From an uncultured delta proteobacterium (GTDB lineage Bacteria; Desulfobacterota; Binatia; Binatales; Binataceae), in the NCBI GenBank assembly GCA_963794325.1, contig CAWCDG010000004.1:896001-960000 (forward strand): a stretch of 64,000 bases of DNA. The letters run 5' to 3'. Shown one piece after another: positions 14,871 to 62,327 of the stretch (its first letter is position 1; each line of letters starts with the position of its first letter). Position numbers and translations under genes: made by a program. The notes beneath the pieces were generated by a model. The model saw nothing but the letters and a program-made list of their open reading frames with translations. It had not been told where the DNA came from and did no database searches.

Positions 14871-15073
14871 CCGGTCTCCCTTCCCGCTCGGGAAGGGGTT
14901 ACCCTCCGCAATCCGGTTCCCCTTCCCGCTCGGGAAGGGGTTAGGGGTTAGATTCTTGGCATCATCCACAATGTTCGCAGTGGCTAACAACTTCAGTTCC
15001 CCTTCCCAGTATGAGAAGGACTCCTCTGCATCCGGTTCCCCTTCCCGCTATGGGAAGGGGTTAGGGGTTAGGT
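14871..15073 (+). repeat. Family A hairpin-TTAGGGG element, tandem cluster of four units
   Basis: Units at 14871-14901 (short tail), 14912-14951, 14996-15020 (degenerate), 15031-15073; core CCCTTCCC-loop-GGGAAGGGGTTAGGGGTTAG. Confidence 0.9.
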
Positions 15074-26350: not shown

Positions 26351-26395
26351 AACCTAACCCCTAACCCCTTCCCTCGAGGGAAGGGGAACAATCGC
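26351..26395 (-). repeat. Family A element, solo copy
   Basis: AACCTAACCCCTAACCCCTTCCCTCGAGGGAAGGGGAACAATCGC, 45 bp identical to the DUF559 flanks. Confidence 0.95.
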
Positions 26396-26406
26396 AGGAA
26401 GAGAGA

Positions 26407-49699: not shown

Positions 49700-52600
49700 G
49701 TGACACCCTTGCCGATCGAGACCGAACTCCGCGACTTAATTGACCGGAATCTCCCAGCGGATTCGGCCCCGCTCGTGCACGCGTTCGCTGATCGGCTTTT
49801 CGCGCGCGCCTCCGCCGATCATCGCGAGCGTGTCCCGGCCAAGCGGCGTCTTGCGCTCGTGCAGTCGGCGTTCGAATTTTTTTCCCTTCGCACCGAGCCG
49901 GTCATCGCGCGAGTCGCAACAGTCACTGGTGACGACAATGACACGCTCACCGTCGTCGAGACGGTCACCACCGATCGCCCGTTCATCGTGGACAGCCTGC
50001 TCGAATATTTCCATCAGCTCGGCGCGGCCGTTCGCACGATTCTCCATCCGGTCATCAAGGTTGCGCGCGATAAGCAGGGGCAAATCGTTTCGTTCGAACA
50101 GTCTTCCTCAAGCGAGCGCGGCGAATCGTTCGTTCACGCGGAACTCGAATTCAACCCGACGGCCGAACAGGCGCGTCAAATCGAGCGCGATGTCATCTCG
50201 ATTCTGACCGAGGTCAACGAGGCGACCGCCGACTTCGACGAGATGACCAGCCGCGCCCTGCAAATCTGCGAGGAGACCGCGGCCATCCGCGAGCTGGTCG
50301 AGGTCCGCGACCTCTTGCGATGGCTGGTCCAGGGCGGCTTCGTATTCCTCGGCTTTCGCCGCTACCTTGTGACCGGCGACGACGGCGCCGCTCGATTGGT
50401 ACTCGATCCCGGAACCGAGCTCGGCATCATGCGCGAGGATGACGAGTCGCGGTTTCGCAGCTCGGTCCCGCTCGACGAACTCTCACCCGCGCGACGAAGG
50501 CTGTTCTTCGAAGGACCGCCGCTGGTGATCGGCAAGACTCTCACCGAGTCGCACGTACATCGCCGCCGCCCGATGGACAGTGTCTCGATTCGGCGCGTGG
50601 ACGGATTCGGCCGCGTCGTCGCGTTCGACAATTTCGTCGGGCTGCTCACCTCGAAGGCCTATGCGGAAGAGGCGCAACACATTCCCGTTCTGCGCGCGAA
50701 GCTGCGTGAGGTCCTTGAGTCCGAGGGCGCCGCGCCCGGCTCGCACGATTACAAGGAAATCGTTTCCGCCTTCAACAGCTTTCCCAAGGACGAACTGTTC
50801 CGCGCGCCCGTCGCCGAATTGCGCGCGCAGTTGCGCCTGATCCTCGACGTCAAGAGCGAGGCCGCCGTGCGGCTCTTCATCGCGCCCGACCTGCGTCACG
50901 GCAACGTGATCGCGATGGTCGTGATGCCGCGCGAGGCCGGCTCCGCCGATCTCAGCCGGCGCATCCAGGACACTCTCGCCGCGGCGCTCCACGGCACGCT
51001 GGTCTATTTTCATTTGGGGCTCGGCGAGGGATATACGGCGCGCCTCCATTTCTGTTTCGTTGCCGATCCGCCGAAGACTTCGGTCATTCGCAGCCTCGAG
51101 ACCGCGATCGCCAACCTCGCCCGGCGATGGGACGATCGGTTGCAGGAGCAGTTGGTCAGAAAATTCGGACCAAAGCGCGGTCGCACGCTGGCTGAGCGAT
51201 GGGCCGGAGCGTTCGGCGCCGAGTATCAAGCGGCGATCGATGTGGCGCGCGCGGTCGGTGACGTCGAAGACCTCGAAAAATTGATCGCCGACGGCCGCGA
51301 TTTCATCGTCGAGGCCGGGCCTCACGCATCCGACGGTCACGCCGACGGGCGAAGCGACATCCGCATTGTCGGCCTCGGCGACGCTCCGAAGCTCTCCGAC
51401 CTGATGCCCACGTTGCAGAACTTTGCGATCGAGGTGCTGTCCGAGGACGCGCACGAGCTGCGTCCCGCGCACCGACGGCAAGGTGACGCGCGCATACCTG
51501 CAGGTTTTTTCCGTGCAGGGCCCCAACTCGCAGCCGTTCGCCAAATTTCCCGGCGCAGTGCTGATTGCCGACGCTATCGCCGCCGTGCGCAATGGTCTCA
51601 CCGCGGACGACGCCCTCAATGCGGTCACTCTGACCGCGGGACTCAGTTGGCGCGAGGTCGCGCTGCTGCGCGCGTATCTCGTCGCCACGTTTCAGATGCG
51701 CCTTGCGCCTTCCCGTCTCAGCTTGCAACGCGTGCTATTGCTGTATCCCGATGTCACGCGGTTGCTGTTTGAACTGTTCACCGCGCGCCTCTCGTTTGAC
51801 GATCCCGCGTCGCCCGAAAAAATCGCCGAGCTGCGCGAAGCGTATCTCGCTCATCTGGGCTCGATCGAAAATATTGCTGACGACCGGATCGCGCGCACCT
51901 TGCTCTCGCTGGTCGAGGCTACTGTGCGCACCAATTATTTCTGCGTGGTGCCGTCGCCCGATCCGTACATCGCGCTCAAGTTCGAAAGCGCGCGCATCGC
52001 CAGACTGCCCGACACCGCGCCGCTCTACGAAATTCGCGTCAACAGCCCGCGCATGGAAGGATGCCATCTGCGGCACGGACGCATCGCGCGCGGCGGCATC
52101 CGTTTCAGCGATCGCCCCGACGACTATCGCACCGAGATCCTCGATCTGATGAAGACTCAGACCGTGAAGAACGCGATCATCGTCCCACGCGGCGCCAAGG
52201 GCGGGTTCATCGTCAAGCCGCGCCCCCACCAACAGCCTGATCCCACTGACGGCGTCGATGCTTACAAGACGCTGATCAACGCGATGCTCGATCTCACCGA
52301 CAACCTCACCGGCGACGGGCCGGTGCATCCCGCTCGCGTCAGGGTGCTCGACAACGACGGGCCGTATCTCGTGGTGGCCGCCGATAAAGGCACTGCGAGT
52401 TTTTCGGACATCGCGAATCAAATCGCGATCGGGCGCGGCTTCTGGCTCGGCGACGCGTTCGCGTCCGGCGGCGAGCACGGCTACGACCACAAGAAGCTTG
52501 GGATCACGGCGCGCGGCGCGTGGGAGTCTGCGCGGCGTCATCTGCGCGAGATGGGCCGCGACCCCGACCGCGGCGCGCCGATCACGATGATCGGAGTCGG

Positions 52601-54479
52601 CGACATGTCGGGCGACGTGTTCGGCAATGGTCTGCTGCGCTCGCGCAACTTGAAGCTCATCGCCGCTTTCGACCATCGCCATATCTTCATCGATCCCGAT
52701 CCCGATCCAGCGGCGAGCTTCGACGAACGCAAGCGGCTGTACGATCTGCCGCGCTCGAGTTGGGCAGACTACAATCCCAAACTCATCAGTGCGGGCGGCG
52801 GGGTTTACCGTCGCGGCCAGAAGCGCATCGAGCTGAGTCCGCAAGCGCGCGCCGCACTCGGATGCCACGCCGACGCACTCGACGGCGAATCGTTGATTCA
52901 ATGCATCCTGCGCGCGCCGGTCGATCTGTTTTACAACGGCGGCATCGGCACCTACGTTCGCGCGACGAGCGAGACCGACGCCGAAGTCGCCGACCACGCC
53001 AACGACGCGTGTCGAATCACTGCGCCGGAGCTTCGCGCGAAGATCGTCGTCGAAGGCGGCAACCTCGGCTTTACCCAAAATGCGCGCATCGAGTACGCGC
53101 TAGCCGGCGGACGCATCAACACCGACGCGATAGACAACTCGGCCGGCGTCGATATGTCCGATCACGAGGTCAACCTCAAGATCCTTCTCGAACCCGCGGT
53201 GGCTCGCGGCGATCTCACTTTCGATGCGCGCAACCGAGCGCTCGCCGCATGCGCTGACGAAGTCGCCGATCGCGTCATCTGTGACAATCGCGACCAGGTG
53301 CTGTCGCTCAGTCTTGAACAGCTTCGCAGCCGCACGCAGTTGAACGAGTTTCGCGATCACCTCCAGGCCATCGCGGATCGCGGCATCCTGACCGGGATGG
53401 CGCCAGCGATTCCGCCGCGCGAGGCGCTCCACGAACGCCACGCGCGCTACCCAGGACTCACCCGCCCCGAGCTGGCGTTGACCACCGCATACACCAAGAT
53501 CGATCTCATCCAACGCATAGAGACCACGGTGCTGGTTGACGATTCGTACCTGGTCGGACGCTTCCTGCAGCCGTACTTCCCAGCCTCGCTCGCTGAGCAT
53601 GCGCAGGTCGCGACGCATCGCCTCCGTCACGAGCTGATCGCGACGCGCGCCGTCAACGAACTGGTCGATTTGGCCGGCTCAACCTACGTGTTCAGCTTCG
53701 TGCGCGATCGCGGCGTCGCGGCCGAGGATGTCGTCCGAGCATGGATAATCGCGAACGACGTGCTTTCGATCCACGAGCGCGCCGCCGAGCTCAAGCGCAA
53801 CGCCGACACGATCGCCGCCGAATCGGAGCTGGGCGCATTTCTCGCGCTCGAACACGCCTGCCGCAGCGCGACTGGATGGGCTCTCGGCGAATTGGAGCCG
53901 GCCACGTCGATCGGATCCGCGGTGACCCGCTTCAAGCCGGCATTTGAAAAGCTGTTCGCCGAATTCGAAACGATGCTCGCGGGGGCCGAGCGCGATCGTT
54001 TCGAGCGCCTCTACCGCGAGCTTCGGGCCGACGTGCTGGACGGCGAATTGGCGCATGGCCTCGCGCGCCTGGCTTTCGCGGATCACATTCTGAGCGTGCT
54101 GAGCCTGAGTTTCTCGCGTGAAATCGAACCCGCCAAAGCGGCGCACGCCTACTTCCAGCTAAGCGCTCAACTTAACTTCGCAACCCTCGAAGAGGCACTT
54201 CAATCGATCGGCACCGACGACCGATGGGAGCGGCGGGCCGCCAGCGAACTCGCCACCGAACTTCGCGCCGCGCGCATCGCGATGTGCCGAGCGGTGCTCG
54301 ACGCAATCGCCGACGATCCTGATTTGAAGGTGGATGAATCGATCGAGCAGTTGAAGCGAGTCCGCGCAAACCGTTTCGCCGAAGTCACCAGCCTGTTCGA
54401 CGAACTGAAATCCCTGGCAGCCCCGACCCTCCCAGCAATCCAGGTCACAATCCGCGCTCTCTCGCGCCTCGCCATATGA
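49700..54479 (+). pseudogene. gdhB: Large NAD-specific glutamate dehydrogenase with +1 frameshift near 51464 (probably a sequencing error)
   Basis: DRPFIVDS, ARGGIRFSDR, KNAIIVPRGAKGGF, YLVVAADKGTA, GDMSGDVFGNG; two ORFs join at a CCC run. Confidence 0.88.
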
Positions 54480-54516
54480 TGTGCAGTTTTCTTGATCGCG
54501 ATTGTAGCTTTCTACA

Positions 54517-55006
54517 CCGCGATTGTTCCCCTTCCCTCGAGGGAAGGGGTTAGGGGTTAGGTTGCTATACTCGCTCGCAGCGCCTGCCTGATGCGCTCGA
54601 TCACTGCCTCGCTATCGAGCATCGCTTCGTTCGAGAATCGCAGGACGCGTACTCCTCTGTTCAAGATACTTTTGTCGCGCGATTCGTCGTACTGCCACTT
54701 CTCTTCATGCACAGTACCGTCCAACTCAATGGCCAGCTTGGCTGCGTCAATAGAAGTCGACGATAAATCCTTCTATTACCTGCTGACGGCGGAAGTGAAA
54801 CCCGTCGAGACCATTTTTCCGAAGGACCATCCAAAGGCCACGTTCGGCCGGAGTCATTTCGCTGCGCAATCGCTTCGCGCGGGCGAGTATGTCGGGCTCG
54901 ACGTTTTGGCCGCGTACAATTTTCCTGCTGCAAGCCATCAGGTTCGCGGTTTGACCGAAAACCTAACCCCTAACCCCTTCCCTCGAGGGAAGGGGAACAA
55001 TCGCGG
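54517..55006. mobile_element. DUF559 cassette bounded by perfect 47-bp inverted family A elements
   Basis: 54517-54563 is the exact reverse complement of 54960-55006; the interior holds only the nuclease gene. Confidence 0.75.
54557..54938 (-). pseudogene. DUF559/Vsr-like endonuclease with frameshift near 54748
   Basis: AKRLRSEMTPAERGLW..LR...FRRQ..I..FIVDFY then DAAKLAIELDGTVH...YDESRD..LNRGVRVLRFSNE; stop TAA lies inside the left repeat. Confidence 0.88.
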
Positions 55007-55027
55007 GCGGGCTGATCGCTCGCTCCA

Positions 55028-56032
55028 TCACGACGCCACCTGCGGCAATTGCGCCGCCGTCGGTTGCATCGATGTCTGCGCGGCAGAATCGACGCTATCC
55101 GCGACCCGCGGCTCTCTCAAATCCTGGTACAGTCTTAATCCCGCCGCGACCAGGAATGCGGTAGTCGCGAAGTTGACGCCGATCTCGGCCAGGCCGACCA
55201 GAAAGATCGTCGTCCCGAGAAATCCCGTCACCACCCCGACTGGCCCGAATAGCAGGCTCACCACCACGAACGCTCCTGCGGCCCACGTGTTGTATCCCGA
55301 CCATACTGCGAGAAACACGACGATCCGTGTCGCGACCTTGAAGAAGCGCTTGCGCATCAGGTCGCGGCTGAACAGCAACGCGTGCCAGCTATGCTTCCCG
55401 TCGTAAATCAGCGCGTACTGCGCGAAGTACAACCAGGTGTAAATCAGCGCGCCGAGGATGATCATCAGCACCAGCGCGATATACGCCCACACTCCAATCG
55501 AGCCGGGCATGAACGTTGACGCTTCCTGGAACAGAAACAGCCCCAACGCCGGCGCGAGCAGTTGCAGAATCGTCACCCACACGAATCCCGGTACAAGTGG
55601 GATCGATCGGCGGTAAACTTCGATCGCCTCGTGGATGATCGTGGGCTCGCGAATTCCCGCCTGGATCCGCTTGAGCGAACACAACGTGACCAGAGTCACC
55701 TGCAGAGTGACCAGCCCGAAGATCAGATGTAGCGTCTTGGTGACCCACGGCGAGTACGGCTGCGGCTCCTGCAGCGGCGCGGGTGTCGGCGAGGGCGCCG
55801 GCTTGCTCGGCGTGTCGGCGCTATCGACCTGTGTGTAGCTGATATTTTGCGATCCCGGCTCGAAGGTCGTCGCCAGCCGGTATTGCAGATTCAACGCGTC
55901 CGGCAGCAGGCACAATGACGCCAGGAGCAGCAACGGCGCCAACACCACCGCCAGCACGGACCAATTTCCGCGCAGGTCGTTCACTGCATTGGCGAGATAT
56001 ATGAAGCTGCTTTTTAGGCGAACTGGATTCAC
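55028..56032 (-). CDS. Hypothetical integral membrane protein
   Basis: 334-aa ORF with about 6 TM segments. Confidence 0.7.
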   Translation of the reverse strand: MNPVRLKSSFIYLANAVNDLRGNWSVLAVVLAPLLLLASLCLLPDALNLQYRLATTFEPGSQNISYTQVDSADTPSKPAPSPTPAPLQEPQPYSPWVTKTLHLIFGLVTLQVTLVTLCSLKRIQAGIREPTIIHEAIEVYRRSIPLVPGFVWVTILQLLAPALGLFLFQEASTFMPGSIGVWAYIALVLMIILGALIYTWLYFAQYALIYDGKHSWHALLFSRDLMRKRFFKVATRIVVFLAVWSGYNTWAAGAFVVVSLLFGPVGVVTGFLGTTIFLVGLAEIGVNFATTAFLVAAGLRLYQDLREPRVADSVDSAAQTSMQPTAAQLPQVAS

Positions 56033-60876: not shown

Positions 60877-60957
60877 GGTTCCCCTTCCCGCTCGGGAAGA
60901 GGTTACTCCCAACAATCCGGTTCCCCTTCCCGCTCGGGAAGGGGTTAGGGGTTAGGT
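60877..60957 (+). repeat. Family A element, tandem dimer (GCTC-loop subtype)
   Basis: Short-tail unit 60877-60905 plus full unit 60913-60957; same architecture as 14871-14951. Confidence 0.92.
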
Positions 60958-62280: not shown

Positions 62281-62327
62281 CCGCGATTGTTCCCCTTCCC
62301 TCGAGGGAAGGGGTTAGGGGTTAGGTT
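62281..62327 (+). repeat. Family A element, solo copy identical to the DUF559 flank
   Basis: 47/47 match to 54517-54563; supplies the stop codon of the HAD gene. Confidence 0.95.

Follow-up and report, generated by a model that had tools for sequence, protein, structure and literature searches.

A DUF559 nuclease pseudogene between inverted triplex-type repeats: a possible decayed member of a family of very small selfish cassettes

We lean towards reading a 490-bp unit in the genome of a soil bacterium as a decayed member of a group of tiny selfish or semi-selfish DUF559 cassettes, whose arms would be the cognate DNA of the encoded protein. The unit, found by a repeat search of a 64,000-nt stretch of DNA (the window) from a 4.45-Mb genome labelled G000 (relatives are labelled G001 onward), consists of one DUF559 (Vsr-fold) gene enclosed by exact 47-nt inverted repeats. 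DUF559, for which a structure has been solved, is a very large protein family; to our knowledge its function is not known. The DUF559 literature, in the parts available, reports no nuclease assay, and our literature search found no description of DUF559 paired with triplex-type repeats. The parts of the cassette and the solo copies of its repeat, which is present seven times in the window, are listed below.

54482..54523, plus strand: head region duplicated in tandem (21 nt) immediately beyond the left arm, in the interval from the GDH stop codon to the cassette
54517..54563, plus strand: left arm (repeat search), including the stop codon of the DUF559 gene
54517-54527, plus strand: left arm head CCGCGATTGTT (sequence reading)
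54528-54536, plus strand: left arm pyrimidine stem CCCCTTCCC, followed by loop TCGA (sequence reading)
54541-54549, plus strand: left arm purine stem GGGAAGGGG, followed by loop TTA (sequence reading)
54553-61, plus strand: left arm mirror third strand GGGGTTAGG, followed by TT (sequence reading)
54557..54745, minus strand: DUF559 pseudogene, C-terminal part in the other frame (DAAKLAIELDGTVHEE...ASIAT*), with the E-x-D-G-x-x-H catalytic motif (PF04480; aligned with the intact paralogue)
54747..54748, no strand: site of the 2-bp deletion (frameshift), from alignment with the intact paralogue at G000:C1
54747..54938, minus strand: DUF559 pseudogene, N-terminal fragment of 63 aa ending ...FIVDFY + TGA (Pfam PF04480, E 6.5e-14)
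54960..55006, minus strand: right arm, matching the left arm exactly as its reverse complement and lying 21 nt 5' of the DUF559 start codon
14919..15072, plus strand: two tandem solo copies of another subfamily (head ATCCGGTT, loops GCTC and GCTAT; motif search)
26351..26397, minus strand: solo copy of the same subfamily as the arms, one head mismatch
60923..60956, plus strand: solo copy of the ATCCGGTT/GCTC subfamily (motif search)
62281..62327, plus strand: solo copy of the same subfamily as the arms, 47/47 identical to an arm

The arms at 54517-54563 and 54960-55006 are 47 nt long, 100% complementary and 396 nt apart, with their tails TTAGGGGTTAGGTT facing inward, and the stop codon of the C-terminal ORF (54557-54559) lies inside the left arm. 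This layout, with its single gene, had been described in an earlier reading made from the sequence only, and repeat search and Pfam agree with it; the two solo copies of the arm subfamily are also where that reading placed them. The hairpin part of the left arm, to which the folding calculation was confined, has a dG of -10.1 kcal/mol (z -2.47). A head duplication similar to that outside the left arm is also found in the orthologous cassette of G009.

The DUF559 gene of the window is a real pseudogene. Pfam PF04480, which has a gathering cut-off of 20.6 bits, matches two minus-strand ORFs above that cut-off: 54747-54938 (E 6.5e-14, 52.2 bits, profile positions 4-49) and 54557-54724 (E 6.9e-9, 36 bits, positions 59-108). 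Compared with the intact paralogue on contig C1 (129 aa, 115.8 bits against PF04480), the 2-bp deletion separates VDFY from DAAKL in the window copy, so that the catalytic residues (the D of VDF and the E-x-D-G-x-x-H motif) are not on one polypeptide; D61, E72, D74 and H78 are invariant in an alignment of the C1 paralogue with six relatives. The sequence-only reading had proposed an autonomous element and suspected an assembly error near 54748 that could hide an intact gene. The deletion is seen, without indel, in Logan contigs of X1, X2 (54536-54988), X3 (54709-54975) and X4 (54596-54753), all from one study, X1 being the probable source run. Since the contigs of X2, X3 and X4 agree at 54747/54748, the frameshift is not a one-off assembly error; that explanation was discarded, and this copy is not autonomous. 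In the Logan contigs, joints and loose ends stem from the many other repeat copies and are uninformative about excision.

An AlphaFold2 model of the C1 paralogue (pLDDT 79) has a Vsr-type fold by Foldseek, with 3HRL (TMt 0.82) and 3R3P (0.77-0.79, target-normalised) as top matches and Vsr lower. Among solved structures, the nearest relatives are 3HRL and the I-Bth0305I homing endonuclease's catalytic domain (3R3P); phmmer matches the latter to the DUF559 protein with an E value of 8.5e-5. The best PADLOC match for the gene is a "homing endonuclease" (HEase) model; a role in anti-phage defence was considered and rejected, as PADLOC returned only this model and weak partial matches. No domain beyond DUF559 was found in the 129-aa protein, nor any intron or intein context.

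The repeat, which we call type A, has the layout CCCCTTCCC-N4-GGGAAGGGG-TTA-GGGGTTAGG, a hairpin followed by a G-rich mirror tail. The earlier reading did not note that this "tail" mirrors the purine stem, a feature by which the element is a triplex-type (BoxC/PIT/TM) motif. Intrastrand triplex motifs are defined for ITxF, in the accessible part of PMC4666352, by a pyrimidine stem, a loop, a purine stem, a loop and a reverse-Hoogsteen strand; each stem has 6-15 nt and each loop 1-6 nt, and no more than one mismatch is allowed. Judged by these rules the type-A element (9/4/9/3/9 nt, 8 of 9 purine-motif triads canonical) falls within the sequence definition of a class II motif (PIT/TM) used for ITxF, and we classify it, as predicted from sequence, as a class II purine-motif intrastrand triplex motif of the BoxC/PIT/TM kind. 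The same arrangement of pyrimidine, purine and mirror strands fits all four arm types of this genome when they are read against the available rules of PMC4666352. Among 94 arms across phyla, 141 of the 155 third-strand letters opposite a purine-stem A are A or T, at most one triad is non-canonical in 70 arms, and 65 are better than shuffles at p<=0.05. Where stems are asymmetric (types A, B, D and GGAAAGGGGG) they are mirrored and are not direct repeats. The G tracts may form a G-quadruplex instead of a triplex. The TM(ECO)/BoxC consensus CCCTCNCCC N3-6 GGGNGAGGG N3 GGGNGAGGG has no match in the window and eight in the genome, none of which is a type-A element.

Type-A repeats are dispersed through the genome in about 213 oriented copies, 187 of them outside crude ORFs, which bears out the earlier comparison with a REP-like family. 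None of 100 dinucleotide-shuffled versions of the window contained the 22-nt core, and scanning for generic triplex motifs gave 253 matches in the genome (195 with the type-A purine stem) against none in a shuffled genome. As the 47-mer occurs nine times exactly and 26 times with at most one mismatch, the identity of the two cassette arms is less special than it appears. The elements prefer gene 3' ends (226 of 374 faces), and at 19 further elements the stop codon of a neighbouring gene lies inside the tail; the stop codon within the left arm is thus not peculiar to the cassette. A modest orientation bias relative to GC skew (128:85, Fisher p 0.006) was left out as evidence for a single-strand mechanism. 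Nine tails-inward pairs closer than 1500 nt exist in the genome and two of them enclose DUF559; of three others inspected, two enclose unrelated small genes and one (87 nt) has no gene, so that such bracketing is not special to DUF559. The commonest derivative of the cassette is a single arm and not an arm pair. A gene-less miniature derivative lies at C5:292887-293042, and 16 copies with the purine stem GAAAGGGGG are present without a cognate gene in the same genome.

The paralogue on C1 has the same layout as the window cassette with an intact gene, and the two type-A DUF559 genes share identical geometry, their inverted hairpin-tail arms being 400 and 402 nt apart. Four of the five remaining DUF559 genes of this genome lie between inverted arms of 42 to 136 nt that belong to three other dispersed triplex-type families, with about 30-42, 16 and 51 BLAST matches in the genome; around the fifth there is just one pair, weak, unique and 18 nt long. 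Two RAYT-like (PF01797) genes elsewhere in the genome are flanked by other hairpins or repeats. RAYT was accordingly ruled out as the cognate gene of the type-A repeat, both genes carrying different repeats, and the earlier description of the system as non-HUH stands, as no HUH gene goes with the repeat.

Comparison within the genus shows that the cassette and the solo repeats are evolutionarily mobile, the same sites carrying filled, empty, solo or gene-less alleles in different genomes. Junctions in relatives were mapped by whole-query BLAST. At the window site, junction sequences show an empty allele in G001, G004, G007 and G018, and coordinates alone indicate one in G012; G009 and G021 carry the cassette there with its interior inverted, the G000 and G009 orthologues being in opposite orientations. 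The C1 site, searched for in 47 genomes, is filled in G000 and G052 only, empty (2-12 nt) in G045, G053, G050, G007 and G060, occupied by a solo element in G055 and G013, and by a gene-less inverted pair in G016. Filled and empty alleles, which the earlier reading had proposed to look for in relatives, thus exist at both cassette sites. The empty alleles are mostly bare (2-44 nt, no repeat). No target-site duplication was seen at the junctions read at the two sites; terminal inverted repeats are present and a tandem head duplication occurs on one side only. Altogether 19 type-A cassettes fall into 11 flank groups; locus L037 (G009:C6), where the pattern found no arm pair, was dropped from the arm-identity and flank-group counts. 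Convergent-gene spacers were repeatedly hit by assorted repeats.

The DUF559 gene is under purifying selection (median dN/dS 0.12 for the type-A gene, at a dS above 1 where synonymous sites are saturated). DUF559 matches per genome in the genus range from 0 to 19, several with stop codons. Over the 21 nt of purine stem, TTA and mirror strand, median pairwise identity is 1.00, compared to 0.72 for the cassette interior; this invariance of the arms could result from gene conversion among the many copies rather than from recognition by the protein. Repeat copy number tracks the presence of the cognate gene, with a median of 104 copies in genomes with a homologue of at least 69% identity (n=19) and 7 in those without (n=26). 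G019 and G024 were left out of these statistics, and G044 and G058, which had no flank match, are unplaced on the tree. The association is partly phylogenetic, as one 9-genome clade holds many of the gene-less, low-copy genomes, and many copies are found without a detected cognate gene in G055 (127), G046 (106) and G013 (73).

DUF559 homologs are flanked by inverted repeats far beyond chance, as the sequence-only reading had expected, in this genome, in the genus and across phyla. The flanking inverted-repeat score exceeds the maximum of 56 shifted controls at 26 of 29 genus loci (L049, from the unpublished G019, was excluded). Across phyla 80 loci were taken and 76 were testable; flanking repeats are stronger than any of 142 controls at 50 of these, and the remaining 26 have no flanking repeat exceeding the 142 controls. 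Cassette interiors in both sets are of near-constant size, about 350-410 nt. The covariation of nuclease and repeat that had been put forward for testing is clear among close relatives only; in the broad set it is weak (Mantel r 0.137, reached by 97 of 2000 permutations). In E. coli, whose K-12 strain has 23 TM(ECO) loci, an exact match to the TM(ECO) consensus lies 168 nt 3' of the DUF559 gene ycjD, and at least 80% of the ycjD segment is covered in 3375 of 5426 complete genomes. A clean empty ycjD allele was sought and discarded, because the one "absent" strain that was opened carries other genes there and is not a simple empty site.

In the explanation that we slightly favor, each cassette comprises a gene of about 129 aa for a DUF559 protein (Vsr fold, PD-(D/E)xK type) between inverted triplex-type repeats, and the approximately 213 solo copies and rare gene-less pairs would be non-autonomous relatives of the arms. 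The nuclease may bind or nick the repeat in folded (hairpin or triplex) or duplex form. Since a hydrolytic nuclease is unable to join DNA, spread would rely on host repair or recombination of the break, possibly by homing-like copying or template switching. As the window copy is dead, any activity would come in trans from the intact C1 paralogue. Several observations speak against this explanation. A PD-(D/E)xK hydrolase has no obvious strand-transfer chemistry; solos are single arms, unexpected from simple cut-and-paste or two-sided homing; and gene-less tails-inward pairs are rare in this genome (the one with the 87-nt spacer). Unrelated small genes are bracketed in two cases, 26 of the 76 cross-phylum loci have no repeat above control, G055, G046 and G013 are copy-rich without a detected gene while the copy-number link is partly phylogenetic, the read junctions show no target-site duplication, and covariation is weak beyond close kin. 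A wider proposal, which we put forward tentatively and would not expect to hold on present evidence, is that BoxC/PIT/TM-type repeats across bacteria have their missing partner enzymes in the DUF559 proteins, which would be nucleases specific for both structure and sequence that recognise a hairpin with its folded-back mirror strand, an intrastrand triplex, and so create, maintain and move the repeats.

The cassette could also be read the other way round, with DUF559 as a homing-type parasite of the repeats and not their mobiliser, copied into a repeat or pair by break repair so that the arms are a split target. The nearest characterised relatives are indeed homing endonucleases (3R3P, E 8.5e-5, TM-score 0.77-0.79; PADLOC HEase), gene presence varies at conserved sites, solos and a gene-less pair sit at a site holding the cassette in other genomes, and some families occur in a genome that has no cognate gene (16 copies with the GAAAGGGGG stem; 127 type-A copies in G055). 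However, the empty alleles, being mostly bare (2-44 nt) and repeat-free, are not uninterrupted targets; the protein (129 aa, DUF559 only) is without the N-terminal DNA-binding region of I-Bth0305I, and higher copy number with the gene is explained only indirectly, by more targets sustaining it. We consider such a parasite unlikely. A host function is quite improbable in our estimation, whether as a structure-specific nuclease acting on hairpin or triplex DNA in repair or restart, or with the arms as an invertible or regulatory switch, the cassette-like appearance then being a by-product of repeats accumulating around the gene. It would suit the strong purifying selection, the kinship with the repair enzyme Vsr and the mutually inverted orthologous cassettes of G000 and G009, as well as, from the accessible parts of two papers, the enrichment of DUF559 among predicted programmed-inversion targets (PMC9881135) and the link of E. 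coli motifs to local genome instability (PMC4666352). Against it, gene and arms appear and vanish as a unit at 11 sites, matches range from 0 to 19 per genome within one genus, decay is ready (the broken window copy, stop codons in several genus matches), and each paralogue has its own arm family, which a selfish unit fits better than one housekeeping enzyme.

Passive bracketing, in which repeats insert by preference at gene ends, where spacers are short, and small DUF559 genes become flanked by chance or hitch-hiking, deserves almost no credence. The preference for gene 3' ends (226/374 faces), the convergent-gene spacers struck repeatedly by various repeats and the two unrelated small genes likewise bracketed are what it would predict, yet it is already contradicted by the shifted controls, which never reach the observed scores (0/56 genus, 0/142 cross-phylum), and paralogues of one genome have different, matching arm families at a constant spacing (interiors about 350-410 nt).

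If the DUF559 link is true, BoxC/triplex-motif repeats and an enzyme family with no known function would share one explanation and both gain a function, and the genome instability at E. coli motifs would be explained. A non-HUH, non-DDE enzyme class would join the biology of short interspersed repeats; relying on a repair-type hydrolase together with host recombination, it would form a third system of repeat and enzyme after IS/MITE and RAYT/REPIN. As ycjD adjoins TM(ECO) copies, the link is directly testable in E. coli K-12. For annotation, the cassette would account for small genes called "endonuclease domain-containing" whose ends are oddly rich in proline/glycine, and for repeat-derived stop codons of neighbouring genes.

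Among known systems, the BoxC/PIT/triplex motifs have been recognised since the 1990s in hundreds of genomes (PMC4666352, which cites Hoyne et al. 2000), with those of E. coli tied to local genome instability (Holder et al. 2015 NAR, PMC4666352). The accessible part of that paper gives them no associated gene or origin, reports no mobility gene with the motifs and never mentions DUF559, ycjD or endonuclease. Our repeats share the architecture of TM(ECO)/BoxC/PIT: pyrimidine stem, purine stem and G-rich mirror strand are 9 nt each, with a loop of 3-6 nt between the stems, a loop of 3 nt before the mirror strand and one mismatched triad. In our element the 3-nt loop is TTA, as in TM(ECO) type A. 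Both kinds lie between genes in tens to hundreds of copies per genome, with counts that differ greatly among close relatives. The stem differs (CCCCTTCCC here, CCCTCNCCC in TM(ECO)). TM(ECO) has been studied by CD/NMR; for our element the triplex is predicted. With the EDxHD/Vsr-like homing endonuclease I-Bth0305I the cassette shares a homologous catalytic domain and presence/absence polymorphism at conserved sites, but it has no intron, intein or N-terminal NUMOD/HTH region, whereas I-Bth0305I has an N-terminal DNA-binding region (Taylor et al. 2011; available part of PMC3239194). Unlike EDxHD homing endonucleases, it lies between inverted repeats that are also present as hundreds of solo copies. 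Among predicted programmed-inversion targets, the annotation "DUF559 domain-containing protein" is enriched with an odds ratio of 14.3 in the accessible part of PMC9881135. Like IS/MITE elements, the cassettes have terminal inverted repeats around one small ORF as well as gene-less miniatures (G016; C5:292887-293042). They differ in having no transposase that could be recognised and in the absence of a target-site duplication from the junctions read, and their commonest derivatives are single arms.

REP/REPIN sequences are short palindromic extragenic repeats present in hundreds of copies, inverted copies of which flank their own RAYT gene; RAYT paralogues pair with different repeat families and REP abundance tracks gene presence. 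The DUF559 cassettes likewise combine a dispersed extragenic palindrome, inverted copies flanking a cognate gene in one or few copies, paralogues with different repeat families and repeat abundance that follows gene presence. They differ from this system in their enzyme, a Vsr-fold hydrolytic nuclease (DUF559 only) and not an HUH Y1 transposase (PF01797), and in their repeats, which bear a third, mirror strand.

The window cassette has as its arms two 47-nt stretches, 54517-54563 and 54960-55006, that carry CCGCGATTGTTCCCCTTCCCTCGAGGGAAGGGGTTAGGGGTTAGGTT as exact inverted copies 396 nt apart. Between and around them lie the following features.

51423-54479, plus strand: NAD-glutamate dehydrogenase, flanking gene converging on the cassette
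54557-54724, minus strand: DUF559 open reading frame, second half of Pfam PF04480 (E 6.9e-9)
54747-54938, minus strand: DUF559 open reading frame, first half of Pfam PF04480 (E 6.5e-14)
55028-56032, minus strand: 334-aa open reading frame, flanking gene converging on the cassette, whose match to a membrane-domain family is weak and below threshold

The stop codon of the second DUF559 frame is contained in the left arm, and the 22-nt core of the repeat did not occur in 100 dinucleotide shuffles of the window. Compared with an intact paralogue, 2 bp are missing between 54747 and 54748, and therefore the first frame stops at ...FIVDFY-TGA, ahead of the E-x-D-G-x-x-H motif. The sequence-only reading had suspected an assembly error here and a gene that might be intact. 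Contigs of the probable source run (X1) agree with the window at the frameshift, and those of three other runs cover it without difference or indel (X2 54536-54988, X3 54709-54975, X4 54596-54753). This agreement, among Logan contigs that drop rare variants and runs that all come from one study, excludes a one-off assembly error at 54748; the window copy is a pseudogene. Just outside the left arm, at 54482-54523, the 21-nt head of the element is tandemly duplicated, and the orthologous cassette of the congener G009 has an analogous 23-nt head duplicate, an inverted copy outside its right arm. Head duplication near the arms could be a footprint of insertion.

The suggestion that the arms belong to a REP-like family was borne out by a genome-wide count. 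In the source assembly (4.45 Mb, 10 contigs, 60% G+C, 85% complete), of which the window is C4:896001-960000, a hairpin-plus-tail pattern gave 213 oriented copies, 98 plus and 115 minus. The head type GCGATTGTT accounts for 31 exact copies and a few more with one change, while TCCGGTT variants make up most of the remainder; the main loop variants are GCTC (66), TCGA (51) and ACTAT (48). The exact arm 47-mer occurs nine times (26 times at no more than one mismatch) and thus each arm is identical to the master sequence of a subfamily that is either young or homogenised. Most copies (187 of 213) lie outside crude open reading frames, gene 3' ends adjoin them more often than gene starts do, and in 19 cases a neighbour's stop codon is inside the element. 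With respect to local GC skew, orientation is modestly biased (128:85, Fisher p 0.006), and the G-rich strand tends to coincide with the G-poorer strand. A second hairpin module (..GGGAAGAGG TTACTCC..) stands ahead of many ATCCGGTT-type copies, for example at window 14890-14952 and 60894-60956, so the elements are often composite. Double-module arms also surround another DUF559 lineage at three loci of relatives (L052, L055, L056).

The tail repeats the purine stem in mirror image: purine stem GGGAAGGGG is followed by loop TTA and a third strand, GGGGTTAGG, which in an antiparallel reading gives G.G and T.A triads at eight of nine positions. This matches the 9/3-6/9/3/9 layout of the class II purine-motif intrastrand triplex as set out in PMC4666352, where type A of the E. 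coli motif TM(ECO) likewise has TTA as its second loop. The TM(ECO) consensus itself differs from the window element, with no match in the window and eight in the source genome. A generic triplex-motif scan found 253 matches in the genome and none in a shuffled genome; 195 of these 253 carry the purine stem of the window element. The computed fold of the hairpin part only has a dG of -10.1 kcal/mol (z -2.47). The element is read as a triplex-type motif with a predicted fold, and an alternative is that its G tracts would form a G-quadruplex instead. Another triplex-type family, with purine stem GAAAGGGGG, has 16 copies in the source genome; no cognate DUF559 gene was found for it in this 85%-complete assembly, and the GAAAGGGGG module is part of DUF559 cassette arms in three congeners (G057, G041, G003).

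DUF559 is encoded by six intact genes in the source genome, which also contains the window pseudogene and a single match below threshold. The intact genes, by contig, are as follows.

C1:5795-6181: intact gene of the window's family (type A), about 75% DNA identity to the window copy
C5 and C6: other DUF559 genes, arms of 79 and 81 nt
C4:389114: other DUF559 gene, arms of 136 nt
C9: other DUF559 gene, arms of 42+31 nt
C3:232648-232959 (L005): fifth other DUF559 gene, flanking inverted pair of 18 nt, unique

The C1 copy repeats the geometry of the window, with inverted hairpin-tail arms at a spacing of 402 nt (400 in the window). Four of the five other genes lie between inverted arms of other sequence, with interiors of 368-526 nt. 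Their three arm types are also dispersed (about 30-42, 16 and 51 BLAST hits) and, read by eye, combine pyrimidine and purine stems with a mirror strand that places A or T against each A; the C9 type has an extra hairpin within its second loop. At L005 the DUF559 domain shares one 694-codon open frame with a downstream tilS-like gene, with no stop between them, and long open frames surround DUF559 matches elsewhere in the genus, such as 677 aa in G010. Nine tails-inward type-A pairs are closer than 1500 nt, and DUF559 is found in only two of them, those spaced at 400 and 402 nt. Three other such pairs were inspected: two hold unrelated small genes and one is gene-less. The unrelated genes are at C6:141890-142500 and C5:71660-72435; one is YceI-like by eye, and at one of the two sites the arms share the subfamily of the window arms. 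The gene-less pair, C5:292887-293042, has a spacer of 87 nt.

Filled and empty sites, a comparison that the earlier reading had proposed, were both found in relatives. At the window site, compared in 24 congeners, the spacer between the convergent genes is 11-44 nt by junction sequence in G001, G004, G007 and G018, and G012 resembles these by coordinates only. A solo triplex-type element of a different stem type occupies the site in G013, and other repeats do so in G003, G011, G016 and G023. The spacers orthologous to 54480-55027 in G003, G023 and G011 (L020, L022, L026) contain unrelated hairpins such as GTGAAACCCGCGGTGGGTTTCAC and CAGGGGTGACCCCTG. This spacer is a general landing pad for short repeats. 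In G009 and G021 the site carries the orthologous DUF559 cassette with a reversed interior; the G009 cassette has an intact gene of 129 aa and is 78% identical to the window copy, with flanks at about 81%. Read from the junctions, the insertion of the cassette plus about 40 nt falls in the last codons of the dehydrogenase gene, which ends ...RLAVELG* in G001 and ...RLAI* in the window; the counterpart of G001 'ggctgatcgc' at the gene end lies right of the cassette in the window.

At the C1 site, compared in 47 genomes, only the source genome and G052 have the cassette. The stop codons are 2-12 nt apart in G045, G050, G053, G007 and G060; G055 and G013 have a solo type-A element oriented as the left arm, and G021 and G049 have degenerate solos. 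Exactly where the source genome has its intact cassette, G016 carries a 454-nt gene-less inverted pair with double-module arms (L148, on its contig C1). This pair and C5:292887-293042 are MITE-like derivatives. No target-site duplication was seen at the C1-site junctions. By flanking sequence, 11 groups can be distinguished among the 19 type-A cassettes of the genus.

Twelve intact type-A genes have a median dN/dS of 0.12 (range 0.05-0.24, dS about 1.1-2.9). When the 19 cassettes are compared, median DNA identity is 0.72 in the interior and 1.00 (minimum 0.90) over the 21 nt that comprise the purine stem, TTA and the mirror strand. Conservation extends to the pyrimidine stem, and variation is confined to the first loop and the head. 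Since identity in the arms is far above that of the interior, the arms are strongly constrained or constantly homogenised. Counted by the 21-nt pattern with at most two mismatches, type-A copies range from 0 to 213 per genome (47 genomes). With two unpublished genomes left out, copy numbers are 27-213 (median 104) in the 19 genomes that encode a homologue sharing at least 69% identity with the C1 protein and 0-127 (median 7) in the 26 that do not (Mann-Whitney p 8e-7); these genomes are related rather than independent, and one nine-genome clade of a rough single-gene tree supplies many of the low values. In the larger clade of this tree gene-present and gene-absent states are mixed. Exceptions with many copies and no detected gene are G055 (127), G046 (106) and G013 (73). 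Repeat copy number is correlated with the cognate gene, and a similar pattern of gene and repeat abundance has been described for RAYT/REPIN systems.

Chance could in principle bracket a DUF559 gene with repeats, an explanation that shifted controls contradict. In a cross-phyla scan with one genome per species (80 DUF559 loci, 76 testable), the flanking inverted-repeat score was above the highest of 142 shifted controls at 50 of 76 loci; within the genus, 26 of 29 loci exceeded all 56 controls. Of the 94 arms at those 50 loci, 70 are adjoined by a third strand in which no more than one triad is non-canonical, and 65 score better than shuffles at p<=0.05. Opposite a purine-stem A, the third strand has A in 76 cases, T in 65, C in 9 and G in 5. 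The tails of 70 arms are directed inward and those of 24 outward, and a hairpin insertion in the second loop is present in many of the misses. The expected covariation of nuclease phylogeny and repeat sequence appeared within the genus, where arm type shifts with protein lineage, and was weak in the broad set (r 0.137, reached by 97 of 2000 permutations).

The best-supported reading places DUF559 nuclease and triplex-type repeat together in a small cassette family, with the window copy as a dead member and the solos as non-autonomous relatives. The nuclease would act on the repeat, and host repair of breaks may then spread it. The main rival is that the DUF559 gene merely homes into repeats already present, and after it comes a host repair role or switch. 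As to the protein, D61, E72, D74 and H78 are invariant in an alignment of seven proteins. Among solved structures, 3HRL (E 1.3e-14) is nearest in sequence, followed by the catalytic domain of the homing endonuclease I-Bth0305I (E 8.5e-5); both are also the best structural matches of an AlphaFold2 model (pLDDT 79), with Vsr lower. The best PADLOC match is a homing-endonuclease model, and the NCBIfam YcjD model matches below its cut-off.

Among the papers listed by literature searches on DUF559 and on intrastrand-triplex repeats, no description of the pairing was found, and none of those listed for DUF559 alone has the term in its title or abstract. The one pointer in print is a table row of PMC9881135, in which 'DUF559 domain-containing protein' is enriched among targets predicted for programmed inversion (odds ratio 14.3); this fits the inverted arms and the inversion between orthologous cassettes. 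According to Holder et al. 2015 (PMC4666352), mobility genes were not found close to their motifs; 'endonuclease' and 'ycj' do not occur in the article text, and its Supplementary Table S2 of motif-flanking genes may well list ycjD, the E. coli DUF559 gene. In E. coli K-12 an exact TM(ECO) match is 168 nt 3' of ycjD, whose stop codon is overlapped by a degenerate hairpin. The stretch between the two (L058, 5240-5410) contains a degenerate second copy of roughly the final 60 nt of ycjD and, after it, a broken triplex motif, a pattern suggestive of an older cassette end. Of 5426 complete E. coli genomes, 3375 cover the ycjD segment to at least 80%, and one inspected strain scored as lacking it has other genes at that place.

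Two RAYT-like Y1 (HUH) genes of the source genome (PF01797), both outside the window, have other hairpins as flanks.

C4:286748-287293 (L014): RAYT-like gene
C4:486313-486816 (L015): RAYT-like gene

Each is flanked by several copies of its own hairpin, CACAGGCT..AGCCTGTG and GGGCGGGC-type. These are classical REP/RAYT arrangements, present in one genome with the DUF559 systems.
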